This document shows positions 2,730 through 31,821 of a stretch of 64,000 nucleotides of DNA, piece after piece. The notes below the pieces were generated by a model, which had not been told where the DNA came from, made no database searches, and worked only from the letters and a program-made list of their open reading frames with translations. Location: assembly GCA_052034255.1 (NCBI GenBank), contig JBPOIU010000020.1:777-64776 (forward strand), in the 5' to 3' direction. Every line of letters begins with the position of its first letter. Position 1 is the first letter of the stretch. The stretch comes from Planctomycetota bacterium (GTDB taxonomy: Bacteria > Planctomycetota > B15-G4 > JADJEK01). The position numbers and the translations under genes were made by a program.

Positions 2730-4118
2730 TCATTCGTCGCCGAGGGTCGACTCGAGCAGGTTGAACTTGCTCGTCAGATCTCCGGCGTCGAACGCTTCGG
2801 TGAAGCAGGCCGCGACGTGCGCCGCGATCTCCTTCGTCGCGGGCGAGCCGCCGTTCTGCGCCGCGATCGCGGCGTAGCGCGTGATCGTTGCATCGTTCGG
2901 GAAGCGCGCGAGCGCAGCGATGAGATCGGGATCGTCGCTGCGAAGCGTGTCCTGCTTCGCGTGGAGCAGGGAGCCCGCGAACCGCACGGAATCCGTCCGC
3001 TCGAAGCCCATGCGATCGACGTCGGCCAGCGCGGGATCGTCGGTCATCGCGTACAGCGCAGCCAGCGTCTCGAGCGCGATCACGTCCCCGGCCTCACCGC
3101 GCCGCTTCAACTCATCACCGTGCCGCTCCAACATCTGCGCGCCATCTCCCACTCCGGCGTCGACCAGCATGCGCATCCATTCCCCGGTCAAGCGTGGACT
3201 GACGGGAAGGGCTGCGTCGTCGCCGATCAACCGCAACGTCGCGAGCAGCTTCTGCTGGTCCGCGGACAAGCCCGCCGACTTCGGACTCGCCAGCATGTCC
3301 TCCAACGATCGATCACGGCTGACGCGCACGTCCGCGTAGGCGAGCGCTTGTCGTACGCGCAGGTCGTCCACCGGCAAGCTCGCGCGCATCCGTTCGAGAT
3401 CCGCCTTCAAGTACTCGTGGTGGATCCCGCTGTTCCACCAGTCCCGCTTGAAGTTCAAGTCCAGCAGGATCAGTTCCTCCGCCGCCTCCACGTCGCCGGC
3501 ATCGACGGCTCGCAGCAACGCATCGCGGCGCGCGAACGACGACGGACCGAAGTGGATCCAGCACGCGGCCTTCTCGACCCGGGTGCTGTCCGGGATCGTC
3601 TCCAACGTGACGCGTCGCCAAGAGTCCACCGCGTCCCGCGGTCGATCGAGTAGCAACAGACACTCCGCGCGCAATGCGTGGATCACGTTCTGGCTCGATC
3701 CGAGCGAAGCGTCGTCGCTGAGGGTTCGATACAGCGCCTCCGCCTCGGGGATCCTGCCGGCGCGGTGGAGTTCGAGCGCCCATTCCATGGCAACCGGCGC
3801 GATGGCGGGGGCTTTGGCGTACGCCTCCTCGTGCAGCGCCATCGCGAGCTCGGGCTCCATGTCGAACAACGTGTTCCCGAGCACGAACGCGTGGGCCGCC
3901 GTGCGCCGGTCCTTCGCGACGACGTCGAGCAGAGCTTGCGTCGCCTCTTTCATGCGTCCTTGCAGCAACCGTCGCTCGTTCGCCTCGAGCACGGGTGCGT
4001 AGTCGGCTCGCGCCCGTTCCAATGCGTCGCGAAAGGTCGCGATCGGGTCGTCCGTCGCGCTCCACGTCAATGCCGCGAAAACGACCAACGATCCGGCGTC
4101 CATGAAATGCCCCCGCAT
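2730..4118 (-). CDS. hypothetical alpha-helical (TPR-like) protein
   Basis: Long ORF with normal composition. ATG at 4118 overlaps the stop of the upstream gene by 1 nt (TGATG). An alternative start lies at 4103. No confident family assignment. Confidence 0.45.
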   Translation of the reverse strand: MRGHFMDAGSLVVFAALTWSATDDPIATFRDALERARADYAPVLEANERRLLQGRMKEATQALLDVVAKDRRTAAHAFVLGNTLFDMEPELAMALHEEAYAKAPAIAPVAMEWALELHRAGRIPEAEALYRTLSDDASLGSSQNVIHALRAECLLLLDRPRDAVDSWRRVTLETIPDSTRVEKAACWIHFGPSSFARRDALLRAVDAGDVEAAEELILLDLNFKRDWWNSGIHHEYLKADLERMRASLPVDDLRVRQALAYADVRVSRDRSLEDMLASPKSAGLSADQQKLLATLRLIGDDAALPVSPRLTGEWMRMLVDAGVGDGAQMLERHGDELKRRGEAGDVIALETLAALYAMTDDPALADVDRMGFERTDSVRFAGSLLHAKQDTLRSDDPDLIAALARFPNDATITRYAAIAAQNGGSPATKEIAAHVAACFTEAFDAGDLTSKFNLLESTLGDE

Positions 4119-5146
4119 CAGCCGCGCGCGACGCGCGACAACACCGACCAAAGCGTCGTGCCCACGTTCGAGCGCCAATCATGCCAATCGCCGGCACGTG
4201 CTCGCCCGAACTTGTCGAGACGGAAGTCGAGGAAGGAATCGTCGAGCCCTTGCTCGATCGGGTACGCGCCACTGCCGGCGTGGATCCGGCGCAACAGCCG
4301 CAGGAAGCCGACGCGCTTCCAGTCCTCCATGTTGCCCGTGACGCGCGCAGCGGCCGGCATCGATAGCAGCGCGCGTTCGTCGTCGTCGAGCTGCGTTGCG
4401 ACGTCCCCGACGCGGAAGCCGGTCGCCCTACCCACCGCGTCGCGCTCCGTGACCAGACGCAACGCGCCGCTCACGCCCTCGGCGTCGGTGACCGCCGCGC
4501 GCTCGCCCCGCAACAGGAAAGACCCCGTCGCGTAGTCGCGCGGCTCGACGATCACGGCGTGGCGATCCCCGCTGAGCCGCAACGTGCGCGTTTCGTCGGC
4601 GCCGGATCGCGATCGTTCCGCGCGTTCGATGCGATCGGTCTGGAACACCGCCTTCACCATCGCGAACGCGTGATAGCGATACGCCGAGCGCTCGAATCGC
4701 GCATCGCGCAGCGCGCCCAGCAGCCCCGCCTCGCGCGCGCGCAGCATCGTGTCGTACCAGGGCAATTCGATGCAGTCCTCGGCGACCCACGCGCGGCGGA
4801 ACGCGGAGAAACGCGCAACGTGGCGGAACTGTTTCGGCAACAGGACCGGCGTGTCGATCAACAGATCGACGCGGCCGAGATCGAAGCGCGACAGTGCGCC
4901 GAGCACGACCGGCAACGCGGCCTTGCCGACCGCCACGTACACGAGATCGACGTCGCGCAGGCGGCTCGCGGTCATCTGCGCCGAGTCCTCGACGCGCACC
5001 GTCGATCCCGCGATCGACACCTCACGCGCATGGCGCGCGAACACGCCGAGAACCGAACACTCGCGGGACGCACGCAGGAACGCCGGGTAGGCGGTTTCGA
5101 CCACGCGTTTGCCCGCGCCGATGATCCAGACTCCGCGCGCACTCAT
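4118..5146 (-). CDS. NAD(P)-binding Rossmann-fold protein (putative oxidoreductase)
   Basis: Start MSARGVWIIGAGKRVVETAYPAF contains a GxGxxG dinucleotide-binding motif. ATG at 5146 overlaps the GMC oxidoreductase stop (ATGA). GGAG upstream. Confidence 0.55.
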   Translation of the reverse strand: MSARGVWIIGAGKRVVETAYPAFLRASRECSVLGVFARHAREVSIAGSTVRVEDSAQMTASRLRDVDLVYVAVGKAALPVVLGALSRFDLGRVDLLIDTPVLLPKQFRHVARFSAFRRAWVAEDCIELPWYDTMLRAREAGLLGALRDARFERSAYRYHAFAMVKAVFQTDRIERAERSRSGADETRTLRLSGDRHAVIVEPRDYATGSFLLRGERAAVTDAEGVSGALRLVTERDAVGRATGFRVGDVATQLDDDERALLSMPAAARVTGNMEDWKRVGFLRLLRRIHAGSGAYPIEQGLDDSFLDFRLDKFGRARAGDWHDWRSNVGTTLWSVLSRVARG

Positions 5147-6813
5147 CTCGACTCCTTCACGGTCAGTCGTTCGCGCAGATGCCGCGCGAGCCGAATCGAC
5201 AACGCCACGATCGTGAACGTCGGATTCGCGCAGCCGCTGGTCGGGAACACCGACCCACCGGCGCAATACACGTTGTCGACTCCATGCACCCTGAGGTCCG
5301 TGTCCACGACCGACGTCGCCGGATCACGTCCCATGCGTGTCGCTCCCAAATGGTGCGACGCGTCCTGATCGATCGGCCACGGCGTCGCGCTCTCGAGTTC
5401 GCCCTCGAGCGTCCCGAGCCCGCTGCGCTGGACCTCCTCGCGCAGCGCCGCGTGCAGCGCGATCAACGACCGGCGGTCGAGCTCGCTCGGGGCGTGCTGG
5501 ACGCGCGGCAATGGCTTGCCGTCTTCGTCCGAGTCCGCGCACAACGTCACGCGTTGCTCGGCGCGCGGCTCCATCTCCATGAAGTTGCGCAGGCGCACGC
5601 GGCGGATCTTCGGGCGCACGGACTTGACCAAGCGGAAGAACACGTACTGCAGGACGCGGTGGAGGTTCGCGAACACTAGACCGAGCACGGTGAGCCACCC
5701 GAGCAGCCCCTTGCGTTCGTTTTGCAACGCCGAGTCGTCGCCGGTCTCGGCGTAGTCACGCAACTCGATGACTTCGTCGCCCTTCGTGCTTAGGAAGCTT
5801 CGCAGCACGAACGTGGCGCGCTTCACGAGCAGGATGAACGCCTCGACGCCGCGATTGTCGGACCACGGGAACAGCGGCTCGAAGCGCACGTAGCTGTTCA
5901 GCACGCGGAGGCGCCTCTGCTCGTCCTCCCGCAGCCGCAATCCGGCGTAGCCCGCGAAGCCCTCGAACACGCACCCGAACCAATACGGCGCGGCCTCGAC
6001 CGGCTTTGCCAGCCGCAACACGCCGAAATAGTTCTTCGGGTGGTTCATGAAGCCGCGTCCGACCTGATCGCGCTCGTTGCCGAGTCCTTGTGGGCAATGA
6101 TCCCGCGACGCGAGCAACAAGCGCGCGTTCTCGATGCCACCACACGCGAGCACGAACGCGCGGGCACGCACCGAGGCGGTGCGGCCGTTCGACGCTCGGA
6201 TCGTCACCGAGTCGATGCGCGGCGCGCTCGCTCCGCCGTCCAGGCGCAGAACCGTGGCGTCGAGCCACAGGTCGACGGCTTCGCGTTCGAAGACCGCACG
6301 GTGTTCGCGGCCGAAATGCTGCGGCGTCGTGCGCGCGAGGAACACCTTCTCGTCCAAGCGCGCGAACACGGGCTGCAGCGGACTCTTCACCCGCAGTCGC
6401 GCGAAGCCCTGCGGCGTGAAGCACGCGCGCGGCGGGAATCGATAGCGCGCGGCCGCGGCCTCGTAGTCGCCGTCGAGTTCGGACCGACCGATCGGCCATC
6501 CCGGCGCGCCGATCCACGGCCGCTCCGCGAAGTCGATCGGATCGAGCGGACTCGACAACCCGGCCCACGTCGACGACGCGCCACCGAACACGCGCTCGCG
6601 CGAGTAGTCCTTGATCGTGATCCCGACGCTGTCGACCCGCCGCAAGCGGTCGCCGCGCACCGTAGTCTTGGTCGTGCCGGACTCGAGCACCGCGACGCGC
6701 AGTCCGGACGTCGCGAGTTCGGCCGCGACGGTCGTGCCGGCGGGTCCCGAACCGACGATGCAAACGTCGTAGTCGGGCAGCGGTCCTTCGTGCGCGGCAA
6801 GGTCGCGGATCAT
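5143..6813 (-). CDS. GMC family FAD-dependent oxidoreductase
   Basis: N-terminus DYDVCIVGSGPAGTTVAAELA (FAD-binding GxGxxG). C-terminal GMC signature (DTDLRVHGVDNVYCAGGSVFPTSGCANPTFTIVAL). Start placed at internal Met 92 of the track ORF. The upstream Arg/Gly-rich extension was rejected. Confidence 0.75.
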   Translation of the reverse strand: MIRDLAAHEGPLPDYDVCIVGSGPAGTTVAAELATSGLRVAVLESGTTKTTVRGDRLRRVDSVGITIKDYSRERVFGGASSTWAGLSSPLDPIDFAERPWIGAPGWPIGRSELDGDYEAAAARYRFPPRACFTPQGFARLRVKSPLQPVFARLDEKVFLARTTPQHFGREHRAVFEREAVDLWLDATVLRLDGGASAPRIDSVTIRASNGRTASVRARAFVLACGGIENARLLLASRDHCPQGLGNERDQVGRGFMNHPKNYFGVLRLAKPVEAAPYWFGCVFEGFAGYAGLRLREDEQRRLRVLNSYVRFEPLFPWSDNRGVEAFILLVKRATFVLRSFLSTKGDEVIELRDYAETGDDSALQNERKGLLGWLTVLGLVFANLHRVLQYVFFRLVKSVRPKIRRVRLRNFMEMEPRAEQRVTLCADSDEDGKPLPRVQHAPSELDRRSLIALHAALREEVQRSGLGTLEGELESATPWPIDQDASHHLGATRMGRDPATSVVDTDLRVHGVDNVYCAGGSVFPTSGCANPTFTIVALSIRLARHLRERLTVKESR

Positions 6814-6856
6814 CGGCGCGACAGGGTAGCAGCGGACCGCGCCGTCCGTGCTCGGA

Positions 6857-7378
6857 TCATGGGTCGGCGACGATCGGCTCCACGACCACCCACGACCACC
6901 ACGGGCCGGCCGAGCGCTCGAGCATGGCCGCCCACCACCACGACGACACGTCGACGAACACCTGGCCGGTGCTCTCGTCGACGATCCGCTCCCTGATGCG
7001 CCACGACCGGCCATCCTTGGATGCGACGAACGTGGCCCACAACCGCTCGCGGGCGTCGACGATCGGGCCCGTCGACCGGACGGCATGTCCGGTCGCGCGC
7101 AGGCAATCCGCCGCGGGGTGCAGCCGCCGCGTGGCCTCGGTCACGTACCGCAACACGATCTCCCGCGGGCCCGCACGGAACCGCGCGATGGCGCCGGGGA
7201 AGTCCGCGGCGAACGCGAGCTCGGTCCGCGACAACCGCAAGGGCGTCAATGCGACGTCGTCGAATTCCGTCGGCCACGCGGTCGGTGTCACGGACTCGAC
7301 GCGAAGGACGGCGTCGGAACCACCTGGCGCCCAGGTCAGTCCGCACGCGACGACGCAGCCGAGTAGGAACGCCCTCAT
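6857..7378 (-). CDS. exosortase-associated EpsI-like lipoprotein
   Basis: MRAFLLGCVVACG lipoprotein-type signal. About 173 aa. ATG overlaps the exosortase stop (ATGA). The position immediately 3' of an exosortase matches the EpsI arrangement. The family call is inferred from context and size. Confidence 0.45.
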   Translation of the reverse strand: MRAFLLGCVVACGLTWAPGGSDAVLRVESVTPTAWPTEFDDVALTPLRLSRTELAFAADFPGAIARFRAGPREIVLRYVTEATRRLHPAADCLRATGHAVRSTGPIVDARERLWATFVASKDGRSWRIRERIVDESTGQVFVDVSSWWWAAMLERSAGPWWSWVVVEPIVADP

Positions 7379-8208
7379 GCGAACCTCCCCAGCGGTCGGC
7401 GCGCGAGCCACAGCAAGCAGAACGCGAAGCCGGCGAAGACCGCGAGACCGACGCTCACGTGCGCGACTTCGGACACTGGAGTCGCCCCGCTCTCGAGCAG
7501 CGTCAGGACGACCGTGCGTGCGATGGTGGCGCATCCGGCGCACAGCGTCGCCCAGCCGGCGAAGCGCAGCGCGGCGCGACCTTCGAGACGCAAGCGCAGC
7601 GCCAGGGCGCAGGAAAACAGCGCGGAGGTCCACAGCGTCTTCACGCCGGAGCACGGCTCGTCGACGAGCACGCGCGTGCCGCGCAACAGTAACGCCGTGC
7701 CTTCGACTTGGACGTCGACGCCGGCGACGTTCAGCAGCTGCGCGGTGATCGCGCTGACGCACGTTCGCAGCGGATAGCCGAGGTAGAACTGCGCCGACGC
7801 GATCACGGGCAACGCCAACGCGCACGTCATCAGCCACGCCGGTCGACGCGCGACGGCGAGCCGCTGCGCGCGCGCCAACAGGACCACCGTCACGACCAAC
7901 GCCAGCGCGGCGATCAGCGGCGGTGCGACGCGCGCCAGGATCGCGTAGCCCACGACCGCGACGGCGGCGGCACGCGCCCGCGTCGGCGCCACCCGCCCCC
8001 CACTCGAGTCGACCGAAGCGAAGCCGACGGCGAGCCCCAACGCCGCGAGTCCACAGCGATCGTCGCCGACACCTTCGATCATGCGCCGCGCATACCAAGT
8101 GAGCGTCGGCCACGCCGCCACGCCGAGCATCAGCCACGGCAGCACGTGCTGGGCGTGGACGGTCCACGGCGCGCGACGCCTCGCGTTCACCCGTTCGCCG
8201 CCGCTCAT
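7375..8208 (-). CDS. exosortase family protein (dedicated, single-cargo type)
   Basis: 277-aa polytopic membrane protein. DEPCSGVKTLW resembles the exosortase active-site Cys motif (aCSG), followed by conserved Arg residues. ATGA overlaps on both sides. Immediately downstream of a PEP-CTERM cargo gene. Confidence 0.6.
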   Translation of the reverse strand: MSGGERVNARRRAPWTVHAQHVLPWLMLGVAAWPTLTWYARRMIEGVGDDRCGLAALGLAVGFASVDSSGGRVAPTRARAAAVAVVGYAILARVAPPLIAALALVVTVVLLARAQRLAVARRPAWLMTCALALPVIASAQFYLGYPLRTCVSAITAQLLNVAGVDVQVEGTALLLRGTRVLVDEPCSGVKTLWTSALFSCALALRLRLEGRAALRFAGWATLCAGCATIARTVVLTLLESGATPVSEVAHVSVGLAVFAGFAFCLLWLARRPLGRFA

Positions 8209-10628
8209 GCCCCACCGCCGCGGCGGGCGCGCACGAAGAACAGCGCCAAGCCGGCCAAAGCGAGCATCAGGTACGTCTCGGGTTCCGGCGCCGCGGAGAT
8301 CTCGGCGGAGGCCGGCTCGGGCGCGCTCAACCCGAACCTCGGGTATTGCGCGTCGGTCTCGAGCACGACCGCTCCGGTGACCGGAGTCACGAGCCGCGCC
8401 GCGATGGCGAGCTTCTGCGCCTGCTCCACGTGATCCGCGCGCGTCGTCCCGAGGAGCCGCAGGACGTCGTCGTACACCGCGAGCCGTCGCCAGATGTCGG
8501 CGGCGTGCTCGACGCGCAGGCCCGTCGCGCGCGCGGCGTCGTCCGCGCGCGCACAGACGAGGCGCGCGGGGGCCCCGGCGGTCTCGACGTCGACGAACGC
8601 GCTGGCGAGCGCTTGCCCGACGTCGGCATCGACGCGCTCGTCGACGTCGAGACCGGCTTCGCGGAATCCGCGCAACACGGAGTCGGCGACCGCCGTCGTC
8701 GCGATCGACACCACGCGCGGAGCGCGCGACGCCAGATCGAGCGCGATCGCGAGCTGCGACTCACCCTCGAGGCTCATCGCTTGCGGCGCGTGGACCCACA
8801 CGATCCGGGCGTCGTCGCGTGGTCCGATCAGATCCAACGCCAACGTCAGCGCCGCCGCGTTGTCGCGACCACCGACGCAGGGCACGACGCGCAAGCGCTG
8901 CGTCGCCTCGCGCACGCGCGTCGGCAGCGCCGGCGAGATTCCGCCGGTCGTCAGGAGCTCGGGGCGATCCCCGGCGAGCACGATCGCGACGTCGAAGCGC
9001 GGATCGATCGCGTCGAGCGCGTCGGCCACGGCCCGCAGTCGACCGTCCATGCCGCGCGAAGCATCGATCACGACGACGAATGCCGACGCACCCGGCACCG
9101 CCGACGTCGCCGCCTTCGCACTCCACGTCACTCCGGAGTCGTCGTTCCACAGCCGTGCGCGCGTGGGCTCCACCACCGCGATGCGAGCCACCGTCGGTCG
9201 CGCGGCGAGATCCGCGTGCGTGAGCGCACCGGTGAGTCGATCCTCCGCGTCCGCGCGCAGCGCCGGCGACATGCGCGCGACACCGAGCGCGCCGGCGATC
9301 ACGACGCTGTGACGTACGGGCGCGAACCCGTCGGCCGCGACCGCGAAATCGCCCTTCTCGAAACAAGGCAGTGCGACGTCGGCGAGCCCGGTCGGATCCG
9401 GGCTCAACGCTCCGATCACGTGCAGACGCATGCGCATGCGCCCTTGCGGCGGAATCGGGAAACACGACAGACGCACGCGCCGCGGACCATCGGACACGAC
9501 CAGAGCCGGATCGCGGCCGCGCGCGGTGACCTCGCGATACGCGGTACTCACGTTGCTCCGCGTGCCGAACGCCGCCTCGCGCGGCTGGCCATCGACCCAC
9601 AACGTCAGCCCCCCGACCACCGCGCGCGCCGGCAACAGGATGGTTCCGATCGCTTCCGCCGGCCACATCCGTGGATTCTCGAACTCGATCTCCCAAGTGG
9701 TCACGATCGTCGCAGCGACGGGATCGACGTGCGTGTCGTACGCGGAGCGCTGGAGGCGCACGGCGCGCTCGTGCGTCGCGAATCCATCACGAAGGACGGG
9801 CGACGCGAACCTGCCGTCGACGTCGAAGTTCTCGTCGAACCCGAACCGGCTCCGCGGTCCACGCGGCAGAGGTAGCGATTCGCCGAAGGCTTGGAACACG
9901 ACCCTGCTCAGGCGCTCGTCGCCGTTCCATTCCGCGTCGGTCAGGCAATACGCGATCGGGTCCGTGGCCGGCCGCAGGCCCTCCTCGAACACGCGCGCGA
10001 CGACGTCCGCACTGGAGTAGCGGCGGAGTTGGTCGATCGCGACGGCCCGCGTCACGGGGGTCCCGGTCGTCGCCGCATGCAGGCGCACGCGGGTCCACGT
10101 CCCGAGCGGATCGGCGAACACCATGGCCAGCAAGCCGGCGGCGCACCACCCCACGCGCGCGGCGATCGGGAGCGCCGGGTCCTCGCGATGCAGACGCCGC
10201 AGCCAGCCGATCAGCGTCAGCAACACGATGAACGGGGACAGCGACAGGAATCCGAGCCCGATGGCCAAGATCGCGACCGCGCTGATCGGCAGCATCGGTG
10301 TGAAGTACGCGGCGAAGAACAGGGTCACGCCGAGGACGACATGGGCCGCCGCGTGCTGCCGCGCCAGCACGGCGGGCGCGGCCCGATCGCACACGACGAG
10401 CCACGTCATCAGCGCCGCGATCGACGCATAACCGACGACGTGCAGTGTGGAGCGCAGCGGATCGAAGAACATCTCGGCGCAGATGTTCGAGGTGAGCTCG
10501 ACGACCAGCGCGAGGATCGGCAGGACGACGCCGCAAAGTACGGTCCAACCATCGCGGGTCGCGGTGGATTGGCGGTGATCGGCGATCGGGACGGGGGGCA
10601 CGGCGGCATCGGACACGGCGTTCTCCAT
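8205..10628 (-). CDS. PEP-CTERM protein with N-terminal 4-TM region, VIT domain and vWA domain (resembles the 'XrtN system VIT domain protein' architecture)
   Basis: C-terminus PEPETYLMLALAGLALFFVRARRGGGA is a PEP motif plus TM helix plus basic tail, i.e. a canonical PEP-CTERM sorting signal. vWA-like FVVVIDASRGMDG. VIT-like region after four N-terminal TM helices. Confidence 0.7.
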   Translation of the reverse strand: MENAVSDAAVPPVPIADHRQSTATRDGWTVLCGVVLPILALVVELTSNICAEMFFDPLRSTLHVVGYASIAALMTWLVVCDRAAPAVLARQHAAAHVVLGVTLFFAAYFTPMLPISAVAILAIGLGFLSLSPFIVLLTLIGWLRRLHREDPALPIAARVGWCAAGLLAMVFADPLGTWTRVRLHAATTGTPVTRAVAIDQLRRYSSADVVARVFEEGLRPATDPIAYCLTDAEWNGDERLSRVVFQAFGESLPLPRGPRSRFGFDENFDVDGRFASPVLRDGFATHERAVRLQRSAYDTHVDPVAATIVTTWEIEFENPRMWPAEAIGTILLPARAVVGGLTLWVDGQPREAAFGTRSNVSTAYREVTARGRDPALVVSDGPRRVRLSCFPIPPQGRMRMRLHVIGALSPDPTGLADVALPCFEKGDFAVAADGFAPVRHSVVIAGALGVARMSPALRADAEDRLTGALTHADLAARPTVARIAVVEPTRARLWNDDSGVTWSAKAATSAVPGASAFVVVIDASRGMDGRLRAVADALDAIDPRFDVAIVLAGDRPELLTTGGISPALPTRVREATQRLRVVPCVGGRDNAAALTLALDLIGPRDDARIVWVHAPQAMSLEGESQLAIALDLASRAPRVVSIATTAVADSVLRGFREAGLDVDERVDADVGQALASAFVDVETAGAPARLVCARADDAARATGLRVEHAADIWRRLAVYDDVLRLLGTTRADHVEQAQKLAIAARLVTPVTGAVVLETDAQYPRFGLSAPEPASAEISAAPEPETYLMLALAGLALFFVRARRGGGA

Positions 10629-10757
10629 CGAGGACGCTCGAGACTTTACCGCATAAAGTTCACGTCTTCGTCAACCGCGTGTCACGAGGCATTCGGGATC
10701 TTCGGCCTGCTTCGCTACCGTTCCGCGCTTTCGTTCCTCGTGCTACGCCGCCCGATC

Positions 10758-11936
10758 ATGCGTTCCTTCCGCGAACTCGCCCATCTCCCGCGATCCCTCT
10801 GGATGCTCAGCGCGGCGATCCTCGTGAATCGCGCGGGCACCATGGCGTTGCCGCTTCTGGTGCTGTGGCTGACCGAGCGTCGCGGCTACACGACGGACGC
10901 GGCGTCGAACGTGATGATCGCCTATGGCGCGTTCGCGCTCGCGGGCAGTCTTGGGTCGGGCTTCGTCTGCGATCGCATCGGCATCAAGCCAGTGCTCGTC
11001 GGCTCGCTCGTCGGAATGGCCAGCGTGCTGTTCCTGCTCCCCGCCTGCCACGAGCCGTGGGCGCTGTACCTCGCCGTCGGCGCGTGGGCGGTGTGCGGCG
11101 AGGGCTTTCGACCGGCGAGCTTCGCGGCGATCGACGCGCTCGCGCCGCCCGACCGCCGGCAATTGGCATTCGCGTTCGCGCGCACCGCGGTCAACCTGGG
11201 CATGAGCTTCGGTCCGCTGACCGGCTCGTTCTTGGCGCAATGGCGCTTCGACCTGGTGTTCGTCGTGAACGCGGCGATGGCGGCGCTCGCCGCGGTGCTC
11301 TTCCTCCGCATTCCGCTGCCGCGCAAGACGGTGCCGACCACGGCCGCGACCGGTGCCTCCGATGGCCGACGCGATCGCCGTCTGCCGCTGGTGCTGACCG
11401 CCGCGTTCTTCACCGCGTTGGTGTTCTTCCAGATCGACTCGACGCTGCCGCTGTTCATCACGCGTGACCTCGGCCTCGCCAAGCCGTGGTTCGGCGGCGT
11501 CGTCGCGCTGAACACGCTGCTGATCGTGCTGATCGAGATCCCGCTGAACTACCGCACGTCCCATTGGCCGATCCGCCGCACGCTGACGCTGTCGACGGCG
11601 CTGATCGGGCTCGGCTTCGCGGGGTACGCGTTCGCCGGTGGTCCCGTCGGCCTCCTGCTCCCGACCGTCGTCTGGTCGGTCGGCGAGATGCTGTGCTTCC
11701 CGACCCAATCGGCGCTGATCGCCTCGCTGGCGCCTCCGGGACGCTCGGGCCGCACGATGAGCCTGTACGTGTTCATGTTCGGCCTGGCACTCCCGGTCGG
11801 CGCCGGCATCGGTCCGCGCGCCTACGAGCGCTTCGGCGCGAACTCGGTGTGGATCGGTTGCCTCGTGCTCGGTGGAATCGCGACGTGGTTGCTTTCGCGC
11901 ATTCGGACGGAACCGCGCCCGCCCGCAACGGCGTGA
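10758..11936 (+). CDS. MFS transporter
   Basis: 12-TM-like hydrophobic profile with MFS loop motifs. ATG at 10758. The 5' extension of the track ORF was rejected because it overlaps the divergent PEP-CTERM gene. Confidence 0.7.
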   Translation: MRSFRELAHLPRSLWMLSAAILVNRAGTMALPLLVLWLTERRGYTTDAASNVMIAYGAFALAGSLGSGFVCDRIGIKPVLVGSLVGMASVLFLLPACHEPWALYLAVGAWAVCGEGFRPASFAAIDALAPPDRRQLAFAFARTAVNLGMSFGPLTGSFLAQWRFDLVFVVNAAMAALAAVLFLRIPLPRKTVPTTAATGASDGRRDRRLPLVLTAAFFTALVFFQIDSTLPLFITRDLGLAKPWFGGVVALNTLLIVLIEIPLNYRTSHWPIRRTLTLSTALIGLGFAGYAFAGGPVGLLLPTVVWSVGEMLCFPTQSALIASLAPPGRSGRTMSLYVFMFGLALPVGAGIGPRAYERFGANSVWIGCLVLGGIATWLLSRIRTEPRPPATA

Positions 11937-11952
11937 CGCCGAGGAGTCGACG

Positions 11953-12879
11953 ATGAAGCGCGTCGCCGTGCTGACGGTCACGCACGACAGCCGCGCCGTG
12001 ATCGACGCGTACTGCGCCGGCATCGACGCGTTGCGCGCCGACGGCTCGGTCGACGTCGAATGCGTGGTCGTCGACCAAGACTCCCACGACGACACGGTGG
12101 CGCGCCTCCGCGGCGTGACGATCGTGCGCAATCCGCGGAACACGGGCTTCGCGCGCGGATGCATCGACGCGATCGGGGCGCTGCGGGACTGCGCCGATGC
12201 GTTGCTCTTCCTCAACCCCGACGTGGCGCTGCCCCCCGCCGCGCTGCGGACGCTGCTGCAGGCGCTCGCAGCCGACAGGACGTTGGCCGCCGTCACTCCA
12301 CTGTTGCGCGGAGCCGATGGCGTGCCGCGGGTCCCGGCCCGCCCACTGGTGCACAAGAGCGACGCGTGGAGTTTCCTCTCCGGCACGCGGCGCGCGCGAC
12401 AACGTCGCATCGATCGATGGAGCGACGCGCACACGATCACGCCGCTGCGCGATGCGTACGCCGAAGGCTCGTGCTTGCTCGTGCGCCGCACGGCGTACGA
12501 CGCGGTCGGCGGCTTCGATCCGCGGTTCTTCGTCTACTTCGAGGACGTCGATCTGTGTCGCCGACTCGAGGCCGCAGGCGGACGCCTCGCTTTGGTGCCG
12601 GACGCGGTGGCGATCGAAGCGGCGTGCAAGGGCTCGCGTGCGGCCCGCGACTCGAATGCGCCGGGCGCCGAGGAACTCGCGCGCTACCTGCTGTTCCTCG
12701 ATGCCGAGGTCACGTACTTCGCGAAGTGGTACGGCGTGGAGTTCGCGCGCTTCGCGGCATGGATGCGCCGGACGCTGGCTCTGCGCCTGCAGCGCCGACG
12801 CCTCGTCGAACGGTTCGGATCCGCGACCGCGATCGAAGCCTGCGCTCGCGTCCTGCGCGAGGCCGTGGCTCGTCTGTAG
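11953..12879 (+). CDS. family 2 glycosyltransferase
   Basis: MKRVAVLTVTHDS...VVVDQDSHDDT...YFEDVDLCRRL (GT2 DxD and ED motifs). GAGGAG RBS 5 nt upstream of the ATG. Confidence 0.7.
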   Translation: MKRVAVLTVTHDSRAVIDAYCAGIDALRADGSVDVECVVVDQDSHDDTVARLRGVTIVRNPRNTGFARGCIDAIGALRDCADALLFLNPDVALPPAALRTLLQALAADRTLAAVTPLLRGADGVPRVPARPLVHKSDAWSFLSGTRRARQRRIDRWSDAHTITPLRDAYAEGSCLLVRRTAYDAVGGFDPRFFVYFEDVDLCRRLEAAGGRLALVPDAVAIEAACKGSRAARDSNAPGAEELARYLLFLDAEVTYFAKWYGVEFARFAAWMRRTLALRLQRRRLVERFGSATAIEACARVLREAVARL

Positions 12880-12894
12880 TCCGGAGCACGCGCA

Positions 12895-13617
12895 TCACGC
12901 GATGCGCACACCGGCGCGGACCACGACGTCCGACCCTTCCGCGATCAGTACGGAGCACGGCGGTCGCGCGAGCGCCGCACCCAGCGCGGCGCCGTAGAGC
13001 GCCGAGGCATCGACGTCGATCGTCGCGTCGCGCGCGGTCCACGTGCGCCAGCGCGGATGCTCGACCTGGTACTCATGCGTCGAGCCGTCGCGCCGTCGCG
13101 TGTAGCCCCAATAGTGCTCGGTGATGAATGCGGGCTCCTCGCCGTCGACGACCAAGGTCGGCGCGCCCTGTCGCCGCGCGGCGACGCGATCCCAGTGGCC
13201 GCGGTGCTTCCACGCGTAATCGACGCCGTCGGGCGTGATCCGATGCCGCGTCGGCAACGCCACGTACGGTTCGTCGTAGACGACGCGCGCGACCAGCGCG
13301 ATCGCGACGCGTGGCACGATTTCCTTCACGAACACGACGCCACGGCGCACGACGCCATCGACCGTGCGGCGGACGTAGAACCGCAGGTTGATCTCGTCGA
13401 AGTCGGTGTGGAACGGGATCGCGAGCCCCTTCAACCGCGTCTTCAGGAAACGAAACGCCACGAGGCTGACGACGTGGCGGCCTTGCCACGGATCGAGTTC
13501 GACTCCGCGCGGGACCAGCGGCGCGAGGACGGCTTCGTCGACGTCGTATTGGACGAGCACGAGGTCGCGCCAGGCGGCGCTCAGGAACACGGGGTGTTTG
13601 TGCGCGGAGTCGACCAT
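12895..13617 (-). CDS. DUF2071-like (YqjF-like) protein
   Basis: WRDLVLVQYDVDEAVLAPLVP...GRHVVSLVAFRF pattern. Start at internal Met with AGGGGA upstream. Convergent with the GT2 gene. Confidence 0.5.
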   Translation of the reverse strand: MVDSAHKHPVFLSAAWRDLVLVQYDVDEAVLAPLVPRGVELDPWQGRHVVSLVAFRFLKTRLKGLAIPFHTDFDEINLRFYVRRTVDGVVRRGVVFVKEIVPRVAIALVARVVYDEPYVALPTRHRITPDGVDYAWKHRGHWDRVAARRQGAPTLVVDGEEPAFITEHYWGYTRRRDGSTHEYQVEHPRWRTWTARDATIDVDASALYGAALGAALARPPCSVLIAEGSDVVVRAGVRIA

Positions 13618-13747
13618 CGGGATCCCCTGCGCGACCAAACTACCGCGGGATCGATCGGCAGCGGCCGCGAGCCAGCGGCGCGAAATGTCGCGGAGATGAA
13701 CGAACGCGCTGCTCCACGCGGGCGGACGGGAAACTACGATCCCGGCG

Positions 13748-14536
13748 ATGGGGCATGAACTCGCCATCGACACCAAGGGCCTCGCCAAGAACTACGGCGG
13801 CTTCGCGGCACTGTCGGGCATCGACCTCGAGGTCCGTCCCGGCGAAGTCCTCGGCTACATCGGGCCGAACGGATCCGGCAAGAGCACGACCGTCAAGATC
13901 CTCACCGGCCTGCTGCCGGCGTTCGACGGCGAGGCGCGCGTCGCGGGCTTCGACGTGCGCATGGCGCCGATCGAAGTGAAACGCCGCATCGGCTACGTGC
14001 CGGAGCAAGCGCAGCTCTACGACGCGCTGACGCCCCTCGAACTACTGACCTTCGTCGGCCGCATGCACGACCTCGACGAGCGCCATGCGCGCGCGCGCGG
14101 TTCCGCGCTACTCGAAGCGTTCGGCCTCCAGGACCGCACGCATTTGCGCATCGGCAGCCTGTCGAAAGGCATGAAGCAGAAGGTGCTGTTTTGCACCGCG
14201 CTGCTGCACGATCCGGCCGTGCTGTTCCTCGACGAGCCGCTGTCGGGACTCGACGTCAACGCGGTCATCCTGGCCAAGGAGTTGATCCGCCAACTCGCCG
14301 ACGCGGGCAAGGCGGTGTTCTATTGCTCGCACGTCATGGACGTCGTCGAACGCGTCTGCGATCGCATCGTGTTGATCGCGCACGGGGCCGTCGTCGCGCA
14401 GGGCACGTTCGCCGAATTGGCGCAGCGCGCGGACGAGACGCGGCTCGAAGCCGTGTTCTCGCAGTTGACCGGCGGCGGCGGCGAGGCCGAGCAAGCGCGC
14501 CGCATCGTCTCGGTCCTGCGCGAGACCGCGCCGTGA
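13748..14536 (+). CDS. ABC transporter ATP-binding protein
   Basis: Walker A GPNGSGKST, ABC signature LSKGMKQK, Walker B LFLDEP. Confidence 0.9.
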   Translation: MGHELAIDTKGLAKNYGGFAALSGIDLEVRPGEVLGYIGPNGSGKSTTVKILTGLLPAFDGEARVAGFDVRMAPIEVKRRIGYVPEQAQLYDALTPLELLTFVGRMHDLDERHARARGSALLEAFGLQDRTHLRIGSLSKGMKQKVLFCTALLHDPAVLFLDEPLSGLDVNAVILAKELIRQLADAGKAVFYCSHVMDVVERVCDRIVLIAHGAVVAQGTFAELAQRADETRLEAVFSQLTGGGGEAEQARRIVSVLRETAP

Positions 14537-16933: not shown

Positions 16934-18412
16934 TCAGGCGAGCAGCGCGGGGATCACCTTGCCGGCGACGTCGGTCAGGCGGTAGTCGCGGCCTTGATGC
17001 TTGTAGATCAGCCGTGTGTGGTCGAAGCCGAGCAGGTGCAGCATCGTCGCGTGGAGGTCGTGGACCTCGACCGGGTTCTCGACGATGTTGTACGAGTAGT
17101 CGTCGGTCTTCCCGTACGTGATGCCGGGCTTGATGCCGCCGCCGGCGAGCCACACGGTGAAACAGCGCGGATGGTGATCGCGCCCGTAATTCGTCTTCGA
17201 CAGTTCGCCCTGGCTGTAGACCGTGCGGCCGAACTCGCCGGCCCACAACACCAGCGTGTCGTCGAGCAGGCCGCGGCGCTTCAGATCGCGCAACAGCGCG
17301 CCCTGCGCGCGATCGACCGCGCCGCATTGCGCGCGCATCTCGTTGGGCAGGTTGTTGTGCGCGTCCCAACCGCGCATGTAGAGCTGGATGAAGCGGACTC
17401 CGCGCTCCGCCATGCGCCGCGCCAGCAGACAGTTCGCCGCGAACGAGCCCGGCTTCTTCACGTCCTCGCCGTACATCGCGAGCGTCGCCTCGTCCTCGTC
17501 GGAGAAGTCGACGAGGTCCGGCACCGACATCTGCATACGGAACGCCATCTCCTGTTGCGCCAGACGTGCGGCCGTTTCGGGATCGTTCGTGCGGTCCTGT
17601 TCGACGCCGTCGAGTTGCGCCACGAGGTCCAGCATGCGGCGACGATCGGCGCGCGAGACGCCGTTCGGATCGCGCAAGAACAACACCGGATCGGCACCCG
17701 CGCGCAGCCGGCAACCCTGGTGCTCGCTCGGCAGGAAGCCGGAACCCCAGAAGCGCGCCGACAACGCTTGCATGTTGCCGATGCCTTGCGTGATCAGCAC
17801 GACGAACGTCGGCAGGTTCTTGTTCATGCTGCCGAGGCCGTAGCCGACCCACGAACCGAACGACGGCCGCCCCGGCTGCTGATTGCCGGTTTGGAAGAAC
17901 GTGATGCCGGGCTCGTGGTTGATCGCGTCGGTGTGCATCGAGTGGATGAAGCACAACTCGTTCGCCAGCGACGCCGTGTGCGGGATCAACTCGGACAGCC
18001 AGACGCCGTCCTGCTGGTTCGCATAGCGCTGGAAGCGAAACGCCGTCGGAGCCACCGGGAACCGCGACTGTCCCGACGTCATGCCGGTCAAGCGCTGGCC
18101 TTGGCGAATCGAGTCCGGGAGATCCTGGTTGAAGCGTTCGACCAGCGTCGGCTTGTGGTCGTAGAGGTCGAGCTGGCTCGGCGCGCCTTCCATGTGGAAG
18201 TAGATCACGCGCTTCGCCTTGCTCCGATGGTGCGGACCGAGGACCGGGGCCGCCTGCTCGCGCGCGAACGCACTGCCGCCGCACAACTCGGCGAACGCAG
18301 CCGCACCGAGCGCGGACGACGCCGTGCGCAGCGTGTTCGAGAAGAACCGTCGACGCGTGAGCTTCAGTCCATCGTCGAACGCGGATTCGGAGCCTGGGTT
18401 CATCCGGTTCAT
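16934..18412 (-). CDS. DUF1501 domain protein (sulfatase-like fold) with Tat signal
   Basis: TRRRFF twin-arginine motif and the alkaline-phosphatase-like core typical of DUF1501. ATG at 18412 overlaps the upstream PSCyt gene stop (ATGA). Confidence 0.8.
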   Translation of the reverse strand: MNRMNPGSESAFDDGLKLTRRRFFSNTLRTASSALGAAAFAELCGGSAFAREQAAPVLGPHHRSKAKRVIYFHMEGAPSQLDLYDHKPTLVERFNQDLPDSIRQGQRLTGMTSGQSRFPVAPTAFRFQRYANQQDGVWLSELIPHTASLANELCFIHSMHTDAINHEPGITFFQTGNQQPGRPSFGSWVGYGLGSMNKNLPTFVVLITQGIGNMQALSARFWGSGFLPSEHQGCRLRAGADPVLFLRDPNGVSRADRRRMLDLVAQLDGVEQDRTNDPETAARLAQQEMAFRMQMSVPDLVDFSDEDEATLAMYGEDVKKPGSFAANCLLARRMAERGVRFIQLYMRGWDAHNNLPNEMRAQCGAVDRAQGALLRDLKRRGLLDDTLVLWAGEFGRTVYSQGELSKTNYGRDHHPRCFTVWLAGGGIKPGITYGKTDDYSYNIVENPVEVHDLHATMLHLLGFDHTRLIYKHQGRDYRLTDVAGKVIPALLA

Positions 18413-21400
18413 CCTCGCGTGATCGTCGCGTCGAGATTGAGCAATGCGCTCGCCAACATCGTCCACGCCGCGAGCTCCGCGGGATCGCGGCCCTCCGCGC
18501 GGGGCAGGACGCCGACCGCCAGCAACGCCTCGGCGTCGGCCGGGGCCGCGCCGTAGCGCGCGCGGAAATCGCGCAGCGCATCGGACAGCGCCGCGGCCTG
18601 CCGCACGGACGGCGCGTTGCCGGTGCAGCGCCGGAACATCGTCTCGATCCGCACGACGTCGTCGTCGGCTTCCGCCAGCGTGCGCTGTGCGAGCCCGCGC
18701 GCCGCTTCGACGAACTGCTCGTCATTCCACAGCGCGAGTGCTTGCAGCGGCGTGTTCGTCGTCGTGCGCTTCACGGTGCACGATTCCCGCGTCGGCGCAT
18801 CGAGCGCGAGCAGCGTCGGCGGCGGCGCCGCGCGCTTCCAGTACGTGTAGAGCGAGCGCCGCCACAGCTCGTCCCCGTCCCCACGCTGGTACGCACGCGT
18901 GTTCGAGGCCGGCATCGCCACTTCCTGCCATAGGCCTTCCGGCTGGTACGGGCGCACCGACGGGCCGCCGACGCGCTCGACGAGGAGGTCGGCGACGTAG
19001 AGCGCTTGGTCGCGAATCGCTTCGGCCGACAGCCGCTTGCGCGGAAAGTAGGCCAACCAGCGATTGTCGGGGTCGCGCTCGCGGACGTCCGCACGGACTC
19101 GCGCGCTCTGCCGATAGACGCGGCTGTTCAGGATGGTCGCGATCAGCCGCTTGACGTCGTAGCCGTGCTCGACGAAATCGACGGCGAGCCAGTCCAGCAA
19201 CTCGGGATGACTGGGGTATTCGCCCTGGAGTCCGAAGTCCTCGGTCGTCTTCACCAAGCCCGTGCCGAAGATCTGGTCCCAGATCCGATTGACGAACACG
19301 CGCGCGACCAGCGGATTCTGCGGCGACGTCAGCCAGCGCGCGAGCCCGACGCGATCACGCGGCACGCCCTCCGGCCACGTGCCGAGCGCGGCGGGAACGG
19401 CGCGTTCGACGCGTTGCTGCGGGTCGGGCTTGTCATAGAGCCCGCGCATCAACACGAAGGTCTCGCGCGGCATCGGGCGCTCTTTCATCACCATCGTGCG
19501 CGGGACTTCGGCGCGCAGTTGCTCGAGTTCGCGATCGAGCGCCGTGATCTTCGCGACGCCGTCGCGATACGCGGTCGAGAACGCCGTACGCCACGCGCGC
19601 TCGAAGCGTTGCGCCAAGTGCGCGTCCTGCGCCGCGGTGTCGACCAGCGCCGTCAACAACTCGCCGCGGAGTTCGCGTTCGGGTCGAATCGTGCGCCAGA
19701 AGAAGCCGGCCTCGCCACCGCTGTTCGCGACCTTCAGGGTCAGCAAATGGCGCCCAGCCGGCAGTTCGAACTCGACCGCGTCCTGATCCCGCGCCAAGCC
19801 GCGATCGGTGCGATTCGCCGCGATCTCGACACCATCGAGGAACAGCTTGAAGCCGTCGTCCGAGCCGAGACGCGCATCGACCTTGCGCGTCGACGGCACG
19901 AACAACTCCTTCGCGACGTAGCTGACGTTGGTGCCGCCCGCGAGGTCGCCGTTCAGCCGATCGTCGCGGAACTCCGGCACGGGTCGCCAACTCTGATTGC
20001 CGAAGCCGAAGTTCTTGCCGCGATCGAGCGTCGTCTCGGCCTCGGGCCCGAACGCGGTCGTGAACGCGAGCTCGCCCGAGTCGGCCGGGAACGGACCGAC
20101 CAGGTGCCACGCCGTCGCCGCGACGGGCAGCATGTCGAACGCCGCCGGATCGAACGCGCCGATGCCGATGCGCACCCGACCGAACGTGTGTTGCGCATAG
20201 ATCGAGCGGTAGTGCAGCCGAACCTGGACTTCGGTGCCCCCGGCGAACCCGAACGGCTCTTGCGCGAGGAACCACGCCAAACGCCCATCGGTGCGGTTGT
20301 GCGCGTCGACGGCCCAACCGTCGGCCGTGTCCGGTCGCAACGCGTTCACCACGCCGAAGTCGCCGTTCTCCTGCTCGAAGTCGGCCCACGCCCACGCCAA
20401 CGGCACGGTGACGGAACGCGTCGGATCGGCACTCGACGTCGCGACCACCTCGATGCCGGACAGCACGCCATTGCCGTTGAACGCCCGTCCGACCCGCCCA
20501 TTCGGCAGGTCCGGATCGGGCAGGACTTCGAGCTGCAGCAAACGCAGATCGGTGGCGTCGGTGTGCAACGTCAGTTCGTGCACGTCTTGATCCGGATTCG
20601 TCCCGGACGCGAACACCGAACCGTCGTCGCGCACGGTCAGCGTCGCGCCGCCCGTCGACGCCGCGCGGACGACCGTCACCGGTTCGAGGCGCACGCCGCT
20701 CGCGGCGCGCACCGCGTTGACGAACGACACGCGTTCGACCGCTTCTTCGGGTGCCGCCTCGTCGAGTTCGCGCTGCAGCGCCTCACGCCGCGCCGTACGC
20801 TCGGCGAGCTGGCTCTCCTGGTCCGCTGACGGAACCTCGATGAACGGCTCGAACGCACGATTCGGATCGGGCAATTGCGAGTACAGCCCGGGCTCTTCGA
20901 TCGAATTGAAGAACGCGATCAACCCGTAGAAGTCGCGCTGCGAGATCGGGTCGAACTTGTGGTCGTGGCAGCGTGCACAGCCGAGCGTCAGCCCGAGGAA
21001 CACCGATCCGGTCGTCGCCACGCGATCGACGGCGTACTCGACGAGGTACTCCTCGGCGATCGCTCCGCCTTCGTCGGTCGTCACGTGGTTGCGGTTGAAA
21101 CCGCTCGCGACGATCTGCTCGCGCGTCGCGCTCGGCAACAGGTCGCCGGCCAACTGCTCGGTGATGAAGCGGTCGAACGCCATCCCATCGTGGAATGCCC
21201 GCAACACCCAATCGCGCCAAGCCCACATCTGGCGGCCGGCGTCGGTATGGATGCCGGACGTGTCGGCATAGCGCGCTTGGTCGAGCCACGGCGTCGCCAT
21301 GCGCTCGGCGTAGCGCGAGACGTACGGCTCGTCGTGCAACAGTCGCTCGACGAGTCGCTCGAATGCATCGGTCCGATCGTCGGCGAGGAACGAGTCGAGC

Positions 21401-22080: not shown

Positions 22081-22252
22081 GCAGCGGTGCGGCGAAGAGA
22101 TGCAACCGCTCGCGACGCACAGACCCGATGCGTGCGCAGCGGATGCCCGTGGTCGCCGTTCGTGCCACGGGCGCGGCGCAGGATAACCCGATCGCGTCGC
22201 CGATTGCGACGCGCAATCGAACGAAGATGCGCGAAAGGGGGAAGGGGTTCGA

Positions 22253-25642: not shown

Positions 25643-25770
25643 GCGGCGCGGATCATAGATCACGCTGTCCGAATCCGATGGCGGCCGGTCGGGAACGCGC
25701 GTTGGATTCGGCGTCGGGACCTTCGAACCCACGCCGAAGACTCGCGTGCTCGCGTCAGGGCGGCAGGGCG

Positions 25771-31708: not shown

Positions 31709-31821
31709 CGGGCGGGAGCTTATCAGCCCATCGAAACGGGATCACGTCGACGAAAGCGCGCCACGCGTCGAGGCCCGGCGATACCGTGCGCGTCCTCCCT
31801 GTTGCGCCGAGGAGCGCTCCG

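Follow-up and report, generated by a model that had tools for sequence, protein, structure and literature searches.

The Locus Encodes a Cargo Protein, an Exosortase, and an Accessory Protein

The DNA analyzed here, referred to as the window, is a stretch of 64,000 nt from a Planctomycetota bacterium (GenBank assembly GCA_052034255.1, contig JBPOIU010000020.1, positions 777 to 64,776 of the forward strand), which harbors at positions 6857–10628 a compact cassette of three genes that we describe as a candidate dedicated exosortase system. In the order of reading, these genes encode a protein of 807 amino acids (aa) with a C-terminal PEP-CTERM signal, referred to as the cargo, an exosortase of 277 aa, and a small accessory protein of 173 aa. 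An earlier note on this DNA had proposed such a three-gene module with ATGA-coupled junctions, and the open reading frames (ORFs) as well as both overlaps were found at the predicted places:

8205..10628, minus strand: cargo gene, 807 aa (ORF list)
7375..8208, minus strand: exosortase gene, 277 aa, XrtQ-like (ORF; PF09721 and TIGR04178)
6857..7378, minus strand: accessory gene, 173 aa (ORF)
8205..8208, minus strand: ATGA overlap of the cargo stop and the exosortase start (direct reading)
7375..7378, minus strand: ATGA overlap of the exosortase stop and the accessory start (direct reading)

On the reverse strand, the junction between cargo and exosortase reads GCATGAGCG and the junction between exosortase and accessory gene reads GCATGAGGG, each with an ATGA stop/start overlap. 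The GC content at third codon positions (GC3) is ~0.87 in all three genes, a value typical of real genes in this window of ~69% GC. Within the 64 kb, one PEP-CTERM tail and one exosortase were detected, and no exopolysaccharide (EPS) or PrsK/R/T genes were found near the cassette. A promoter and terminator scan was uninformative, as it yielded no promoter-like site and, within the exosortase gene, a single terminator-like one, fewer than expected by chance.

The Exosortase Is Closest to XrtQ

The earlier note had read the 277-aa protein as an exosortase from its CSG motif. This assignment holds, as the protein passes the exosortase models PF09721 (Exosortase_EpsH, 78.3 bits against a cutoff of 25.7) and TIGR04178 (exosortase/archaeosortase signature, 29.9 bits against 23). 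Hydropathy analysis yielded at least six hydrophobic segments. In an alignment of 11 exosortases with 28–68% identity to the window protein, P185, C186, G188, R231, and H250 are invariant. Three of these residues correspond to the Cys/Arg/His set that is suspected to form the catalytic triad of exosortases (Haft 2023, bioRxiv 10.1101/2023.06.07.544157):

nt 7651–7653, minus strand: Cys186 of the CSG motif (invariant in the alignment)
nt 7516–7518, minus strand: Arg231 (invariant in the alignment)
nt 7459–7461, minus strand: His250 (invariant in the alignment)

Among the subfamily models, the highest score was obtained with XrtQ (NF012182; 129.7 bits, cutoff 270), followed by XrtT (NF033770; 52.7 bits, cutoff 250), the generic EpsH model (49 bits), XrtN (45 bits, cutoff 200), and XrtA (33.6 bits, cutoff 208). 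XrtQ also ranked first for all 33 related exosortases that were scanned in three sets (13 + 10 + 10), and the exosortases from the loci described below reach 107–219 bits on this model, again below the cutoff. By these model scores, the window exosortase is closest to XrtQ and appears to be a below-cutoff relative of it in split form.

The N-terminus of the window exosortase is 19 residues longer than that of its 61–69% identical relatives (277 versus 258 aa), and the gene overlaps the cargo stop by 4 nt in the window and in the shorter relatives alike. GTG/ATG alternatives exist downstream, so that the exact start is uncertain.

The Cargo Is a Membrane-Anchored VIT–vWA Protein With a PEP-CTERM Tail

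Four regions were delimited within the cargo protein, abbreviated here with TM for transmembrane, vWA for von Willebrand factor A, and MIDAS for metal ion-dependent adhesion site:

10119..10577, minus strand: N-terminal bundle of five TM helices, cargo residues ~18–170 (hydropathy, AlphaFold, match to the MSEP-CTERM model)
9291..9758, minus strand: VIT beta-sandwich, cargo residues ~291–446, with the Pfam match at 304–403 (Pfam, profile, AlphaFold, Foldseek)
8580..9083, minus strand: vWA domain, cargo residues ~516–683, with the degenerate MIDAS D522-A-S524-R-G (profile, model, Foldseek)
8208..8294, minus strand: PEP-CTERM sorting signal, cargo residues 779–807, consisting of APEPETY, the TM helix LMLALAGLALFFV, and the basic RARRGGGA (models, conservation)

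For the N-terminal region the earlier note had counted four TM helices. Instead, hydropathy analysis gave five segments (residues 29–45, 64–80, 97–113, 120–136, and 155–171) and the AlphaFold model gave five helices (18–47, 61–79, 85–123, 131–149, and 155–170), and the MSEP-CTERM model aligns through its TM region with residues 28–137 (49.8 bits). Comparable N-termini with 4–7, mostly 5–6, hydrophobic segments occur in 49 of the 72 cargos for which enough N-terminal sequence was available. On the basis of the helix count and the positive-inside rule, with the RARR cluster following the last helix, the VIT and vWA domains would face the periplasm.

The VIT-like region that had been noticed before is recognized by the Pfam model PF08487 with 38.8 bits against a gathering threshold of 26.5, and residues 330–396 additionally match TIGR02921 (23 bits). 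The vWA domain remained below the threshold in Pfam (VWA_3, E 0.21), yet its presence is confirmed by two other approaches. With a profile built on the cargo family, human ITIH4 (E 2.9e-16) and ITIH1 are matched across the VIT and vWA regions, with the vWA part at positions 504–768, and a Foldseek search with the AlphaFold model of the cargo returned ITIH1 (E 3.2e-16) followed by many vWA domains, including those of CMG2, TEM8, and TFIIH p44. In the AlphaFold model, the vWA region shows alternating beta/alpha secondary structure. The best NCBIfam matches of the entire cargo, all of them below cutoff, are TIGR04477, the VIT protein of the XrtN system (97 bits, E 7.8e-28), MSEP-CTERM (50 bits), and TIGR02921 (23 bits).

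The MIDAS of the window cargo reads DASRG and not DxSxS. A census of cargo homologues from loci L010–L089, based on the alignment column of window residues 522–526, distinguished two types. In short-type cargos (~680 aa), there is a single hydrophobic segment at the N-terminus, and the MIDAS reads D[VI]SGS in 23 of 23 cases, whereas those of the long type (~800 aa), to which the window cargo belongs, have 4–7 and mostly 5–6 TM segments and a relaxed MIDAS; in 28 of 49 long cargos DxS alone is kept and the second MIDAS serine is lost. Judged from this alignment, the gain of membrane anchors appears to correlate with relaxation of the metal site among the cargo subtypes.

What the earlier note had called a textbook PEP-CTERM tail is tripartite, as expected, and located at the extreme C-terminus, with the PEP motif abutting a TM helix that is followed by a basic cluster, but it narrowly misses the generic models, scoring 15.8 bits on TIGR02595 (cutoff 16) and 18.1 bits on PF07589 (cutoff 20.7). 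A clade-specific hidden Markov model (HMM) was built on 78 tails of other lineages, from which the window sequence and its close relatives were left out. With this model, the window tail is significant (27.4 bits, E 5.6e-8), whereas the next-best of the 525 window ORFs reaches 5.2 bits. In substance, neither result that the earlier note had named as fatal to its reading, failure on exosortase HMMs or a tail that lacks a significant score, was obtained. P781, E782, P783, and R800 are invariant among the cargo relatives, and the cross-phylum consensus of the tails reads VPTIPEPE-hydrophobic-RRR.

The Accessory Protein Is a Free-Standing Form of an Exosortase-Fused Domain

The third gene encodes a protein with an N-terminal signal-anchor helix (residues 2–19), a linker of low model confidence, and a predicted periplasmic alpha/beta sandwich (residues ~41–170). 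In an alignment of 53 homologues (A4), T83, R84, L86, H87, A89, D91, and C92 are invariant and P88 is nearly so. Further invariant positions are F60, P61, G62, E130, D143, S145, W147, and W149. The central motif is located as follows:

7103..7132, minus strand: motif T83-R84-x-L86-H87-P88-A89-x-D91-C92 (53-sequence alignment A4, also alignment A1)

The protein has no Pfam match, and its sole NCBIfam match is to positions 308–444 of the 472-position exosortase T model. The same C-terminal region of XrtT (profile ~290–450) is matched by all 53 homologues, whereas not one of them reaches E ≤ 1 with TIGR02914, the model for EpsI, or with any family of Pfam, the DUF3485/EpsI family presumably being among the Pfam families scanned. 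There was also no EpsI-annotated chain among the PDB matches to the model of the accessory domain. An exhaustive profile search retrieved 1,013 representative clusters (50% identity); about half of the top 150 matches are stand-alone proteins of 170–250 aa, and about half are proteins of 420–550 aa with the domain at their C-terminus. Five of the fused proteins (P0100, P0110, P0113, P0131, and P0135) score 297–322 bits on the XrtQ model and thus pass its cutoff of 270, and therefore bona fide XrtQ carries the accessory domain as a fusion, of which the window arrangement is the split version. By these matches, what XrtQ and XrtT carry as a periplasmic domain at their C-terminus exists in the window as a free-standing protein, the accessory protein. 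Two of the 53 homologues weakly match TIGR04533, a cyanoexosortase B system-associated protein (E 0.0014), which hints at a possible wider superfamily of exosortase partner proteins.

The earlier note had taken the third gene product for a lipoprotein, which does not agree with the comparison of its homologues. A canonical lipobox, defined as [LVI][ASTVI][GAS]C at the end of the hydrophobic region of the signal peptide, is present in 9 of 116 stand-alone homologues, and Cys12 of the window protein (VVAC, residues 9–12) is unique to the window sequence. The semi-conserved cysteine is located at the start of the hydrophobic run and not at its end, and in fused homologues the helix that serves as anchor persists inside the protein, as its ninth TM segment. 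The accessory protein is thus predicted to be a signal-anchored periplasmic protein and not a lipoprotein. The position of this cysteine in the window is Cys8 (7355–7357), where the pattern C-[AV]-x-A-A-x-x-P-L-L is semi-conserved in stand-alone and fused forms, and 85 of the 116 stand-alone homologues have a cysteine within their first 35 residues.

The Cassette Is Conserved Across About Ten Phyla

For the analysis of conservation, 185,579 species genomes were scanned with an exosortase profile, and 80 loci were retrieved. This pattern-based scan gave 156 matches, and a word-indexed search for exosortase homologues gave 14, which understates the family. In 80 of the 80 reference-genome loci, HMMs detected a cargo homologue directly upstream and the accessory domain directly downstream of the exosortase, so that the cargo-first, one-cargo/one-exosortase layout described in the earlier note is well supported by synteny. 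The loci span about ten phyla with unrelated flanks and derive from Verrucomicrobiota, Acidobacteriota, Gamma- and Betaproteobacteria, Melainabacteria, Planctomycetota, Bacillota-labelled metagenome-assembled genomes (MAGs), Desulfomonilaceae, Bdellovibrionales, and Armatimonadota. Among the organisms with the cassette are Peristeroidobacter soli JW-3 (L084) and Exilibacterium tricleocarpae R142 (L053). The accessory domain is encoded separately from the exosortase in 70 of 90 loci and fused to it in-frame in 20. A 4-nt overlap between cargo and exosortase gene is present in 40 of 85 related loci, and a 4-nt overlap between exosortase and accessory gene in 24 of 67 split loci.

Close relatives with 61–69% identity share the entire neighborhood, which says little by itself. 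Exosortases of 28–35% identity, however, are encoded by the same three overlapping genes in three unrelated neighborhoods, and four independent metagenomic contexts contain the cassette with differing flanks. The relatives of 64–67% identity are labelled “Planctomycetes bacterium”; among the species representatives of the Genome Taxonomy Database (GTDB) the window lineage is absent, and the best match has ~40% identity. P0113, which is a bona fide XrtQ with 322 bits, is encoded directly downstream of a 669-aa VIT+VWA protein.

In the short-cargo branch, the genome loci of which are mostly from Betaproteobacteria-labelled MAGs, the gene next to the cassette on its downstream side encodes a transglycosylase in 8 of 90 loci, including L005 (3137–4477), L090 (7404–8669), L033, L066, L068, L072, and L080. 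In L007, an alpha-2-macroglobulin and a PBP1c-like gene follow the cassette (6845–14299). In this clade only, such neighbors link the cassette to functions in the periplasm or the cell wall. As a fourth component of the system the transglycosylase and the alpha-2-macroglobulin were rejected, since they occur in the 8 loci and in one locus, respectively, and are absent from the window. A protein of 937 aa (P0145), which combines vWA, exosortase, and accessory parts, was considered as a natural triple fusion and discarded, as a Gly/Arg-rich junk linker replaces the PEP tail; a frameshift or an assembly artefact is the most likely explanation.

Neighboring Genes

The upstream flank of the cassette encodes a major facilitator superfamily (MFS) transporter, a GT2 glycosyltransferase, a DUF2071 protein, and an ABC ATPase. 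Downstream, after a gap of 43 nt, a 556-aa GMC-type FAD oxidoreductase is encoded (5143–6813, minus strand), which is ATGA-coupled to the gene of a 342-aa protein (4118–5146, minus strand) without any Pfam match. This pair follows the cassette in the close relatives L002–L004 only, and in L002 the start of the oxidoreductase gene overlaps the stop of the accessory gene. In the window lineage, cassette and pair may form one transcription unit. It was not counted as part of the cassette, since its conservation in close relatives only marks it as a lineage-specific neighbor.

Farther away, a gene for a DUF1501 protein (16934–18466, minus strand) adjoins one for a 1309-aa PSCyt1/PSCyt2/PSD1 (DUF1549/DUF1553) protein (18409–22338, minus strand), a gene pair that is typical of Planctomycetota and agrees with the labels of the nearest relatives. 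A 1319-aa protein (22253–26212, minus strand) combines ThuA, glucose/sorbosone dehydrogenase, PKD, and DUF5077 domains. An 847-aa DPP-IV/S9 peptidase (31786–34329, plus strand) matches near its N-terminus the eukaryotic VHL beta domain (PF01847, E 1.2e-8), which is an unusual combination.

Weighing of Alternative Explanations

Four other explanations of the locus were weighed against a dedicated XrtQ-like system. The earlier note had pointed to the XrtN system, which pairs exosortase N with a VIT-domain PEP-CTERM target. Its part list is the same, the best NCBIfam match of the cargo is to its target model, and fused relatives align past the exosortase core with the XrtN profile (e.g., P0100 with residues 47–394 to positions 32–365 of 406). 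However, the cargo stays far under the TIGR04477 cutoff of 250 bits, the exosortase scores 45 bits on XrtN compared to 129.7 on XrtQ, and XrtQ is the top model for each of the 33 relatives. The score ranking already indicates that the window exosortase probably belongs with XrtQ, either within that group or beside it, and not in the XrtN clade, and an XrtN affiliation appears extremely improbable to us. It is less far-fetched, although still quite improbable, that the enzyme is an XrtA-like housekeeping exosortase that serves many PEP-CTERM proteins throughout the genome and is adjacent to the cargo only incidentally. Such one-to-many relations characterize classical PEP-CTERM systems (Haft 2006, PMC1569441), and of the genome our data cover the 64-kb window. 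With this explanation it would be hard to reconcile the XrtA score of 33.6 bits against a cutoff of 208, the lack of an EPS or PrsK/R/T locus near the cassette, the adjacency of cargo and exosortase, which holds in 80 of 80 loci from various phyla with variable flanks, the 4-nt start/stop overlap in about half of the loci, and the tail flavor that the clade has of its own.

For the third gene, its assignment as an EpsI-family lipoprotein is improbable. The position agrees, EpsI-like regions are likewise “fused with or adjacent to” exosortases (PMC1569441), and VVAC at residues 9–12 resembles a lipobox; this positional part of the EpsI-like assignment in the earlier note stands. The part that concerns sequence does not, as the homologues match the C-terminus of XrtT (53/53) and not TIGR02914 or any Pfam family (0/53), and the rarity of the lipobox (9/116), the window-only Cys12, the conserved cysteine ahead of the hydrophobic run, and the internal helix of fused forms speak against a lipoprotein. 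It might also be that the cargo is not cleaved at all and that its PEP-CTERM helix acts as a permanent docking helix in a stable membrane complex of cargo, exosortase, and accessory protein, for instance a receptor or adhesin. With five N-terminal anchors, removal of the tail is needed neither for membrane retention nor for release. Nevertheless, this possibility is very improbable, since Cys186, Arg231, and His250 are invariant in an otherwise 28–68% identical alignment, as are the PEP motif and the basic cluster in the cargo, and such invariance is the pattern expected of an enzyme-substrate pair (Haft 2023, bioRxiv 10.1101/2023.06.07.544157).

Overall, the three translationally coupled genes very probably constitute a genuine dedicated one-enzyme/one-target exosortase system of an XrtQ-like clade. 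In “dedicated systems”, enzyme and target are related one-to-one and encoded by consecutive genes (Haft 2023, bioRxiv 10.1101/2023.06.07.544157). Several points weigh against this interpretation. None of the subfamily cutoffs is reached by the exosortase (129.7 versus 270 bits on XrtQ) nor that of the XrtN-target model by the cargo (97 versus 250 bits), and the window tail lies narrowly below the cutoffs of TIGR02595 and PF07589. The confidence of the cargo AlphaFold model is moderate (predicted local distance difference test score, pLDDT, 73; predicted template modelling score, pTM, 0.47), and owing to the degenerate MIDAS, ligand binding by the cargo is uncertain. That the system serves a single cargo is concluded from the conserved adjacency of the genes and from a tail type specific to the clade, and not from a genome-wide count. 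Recognition and cleavage of the PEP motif by the exosortase are presumed from knowledge of the family, and while the fusion of exosortase and accessory domain is observed, their physical and functional partnership is presumed from it. In the literature collection that was searched, there was no paper that mentions XrtQ, XrtN, or XrtT, and nothing relevant on MSEP-CTERM.

Proposed Mechanism and Implications

In a dedicated XrtQ-like system of this composition, the cargo would be inserted into the inner membrane by its five N-terminal TM helices, with the VIT and vWA domains directed toward the periplasm. The PEP-CTERM signal would provide a sixth, C-terminal helix that re-crosses the membrane and leaves the RARR sequence in the cytoplasm. 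The exosortase, with Cys186, Arg231, and His250, would recognize the PEP motif abutting this last helix and cut the helix off, possibly by transpeptidation of the cargo onto an acceptor. The accessory protein would be held by its one N-terminal anchor helix, expose a Mog1/PsbP/DcrB-like domain to the periplasm, and be an obligate partner of the exosortase, given that about a fifth of the loci, as well as bona fide XrtQ, have it as the C-terminal domain of the enzyme itself. Since the cargo would keep its N-terminal anchor after removal of the tail, the likely outcome is maturation or anchoring of an envelope VIT–vWA adhesin or binding protein and not secretion.

It is a long shot, though worth stating, that the accessory domain constitutes a second reactive center and not a passive chaperone. 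Its invariant residues His87, Asp91, and Cys92, along with Glu130, Asp143, and Ser145, would then form a catalytic or covalent-intermediate site in the periplasm, which would take over the newly made C-terminus of the cargo from the exosortase and ligate it to an envelope acceptor, while the cargo stays anchored by its five helices. If true, this would parallel in bacteria how eukaryotic ITIH heavy chains mature by cleavage and transfer, and the family of ~1,000 clusters, which no Pfam model covers, would be the missing “transferase half” of dedicated exosortase systems.

To our knowledge, no exosortase with a VIT–vWA target has been characterized experimentally, and we know of no exosortase reaction for which the acceptor and the chemistry have been established. 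A three-gene system with one substrate offers about the simplest setting for reconstituting exosortase activity, because the predicted substrate and its enzyme are encoded side by side and a presumably obligatory partner domain has been identified by Rosetta-stone fusions. The NCBI model for XrtQ covers a narrow slice of a clade that spans ~ten phyla, and the accessory domain (~1,000 clusters, motif RxLHPAxDC) has no stand-alone family model, so that its proteins are labelled “hypothetical”. We consider this family the most useful lead of the analysis, the finding being otherwise ordinary for the window.

Comparison With Known Systems

The closest known system is XrtQ (NF012182), which gives the highest subfamily scores for the window enzyme and its scanned relatives and shares the catalytic residues. 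The proteins that pass its cutoff carry the accessory domain, and P0113 adjoins a VIT+vWA protein, both of which are present as adjacent genes in the window. The differences are that the window enzyme stays at 129.7 of the 270 bits, that the XrtQ-passing proteins are fusions of 445–530 aa whereas the window accessory protein is separate and ATGA-coupled, and that the one bona fide XrtQ cargo that was inspected (L090) is of the short type with 669 aa and a strong vWA match, in contrast to the long window cargo with five TM helices and a degenerate MIDAS.

XrtN (TIGR04476 and TIGR04477) is a sister system with the same parts, i.e., a dedicated exosortase and a VIT protein of ~800 aa with a PEP-CTERM-type tail, and its C-terminal extension aligns in part with the accessory domain in fused relatives. 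The window proteins miss both models widely (45 versus 200 and 97 versus 250 bits), and XrtN is a fused protein of 406 positions. With the XrtK/MSEP-CTERM system (TIGR04286) and TIGR02921, the cargo shares the multi-TM N-terminus, the VIT region, and the C-terminal sorting signal, but it scores far below the respective cutoffs of 150 and 200 bits and ends in a PEP instead of an MSEP signal. One small family of integral-membrane PEP-CTERM proteins has been noted as an exception (Haft 2006, PMC1569441). XrtT (NF033770) is the only curated model that detects the window accessory protein, whereas the exosortase domain of the window reaches 52.7 of 250 bits on it and XrtT is a fusion protein.

With the EpsH/EpsI pair (TIGR02602 and TIGR02914) there is a positional analogy only. 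There, too, an exosortase is followed by a small accessory protein, and EpsI of the XrtA system is “fused with or adjacent to” the exosortase, depending on the lineage (Haft 2006, PMC1569441). In terms of sequence, EpsI is matched by none of the 53 accessory homologues, and XrtA systems are one-to-many and located in EPS loci, whereas the window system is one-to-one and without an EPS locus. A functional analogy, and a precedent for an essential small exosortase partner, comes from Flavobacterium johnsoniae, where deletion of xrtF or of the adjacent small system-associated gene leads to the same defect in biofilm formation and colonisation (PMC10936215).

The architecture of the cargo, VIT–vWA followed by a C-terminal helical region, is shared with ITIH1/ITIH4 and with the marine proteobacterial sortase target TIGR03788, which weakly matches the cargos of relatives and strongly the vWA portion of P0145. 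ITIH heavy chains undergo C-terminal cleavage with covalent transfer to a glycan, and each TIGR03788 protein is the single target of a dedicated sortase. Like these, the window cargo would be a VIT–vWA protein that matures by C-terminal processing, a mechanistic parallel that is meant as an analogy. The ITIH proteins differ by an identity of 12–16%, by having no TM helices, and by other processing enzymes in place of the exosortase of the window. The system is related to, and presumably works like, the dedicated XrtQ, XrtN, XrtK, and XrtT systems that are described by curated database models, and the cassette is a divergent member of a widespread, database-catalogued sorting system.

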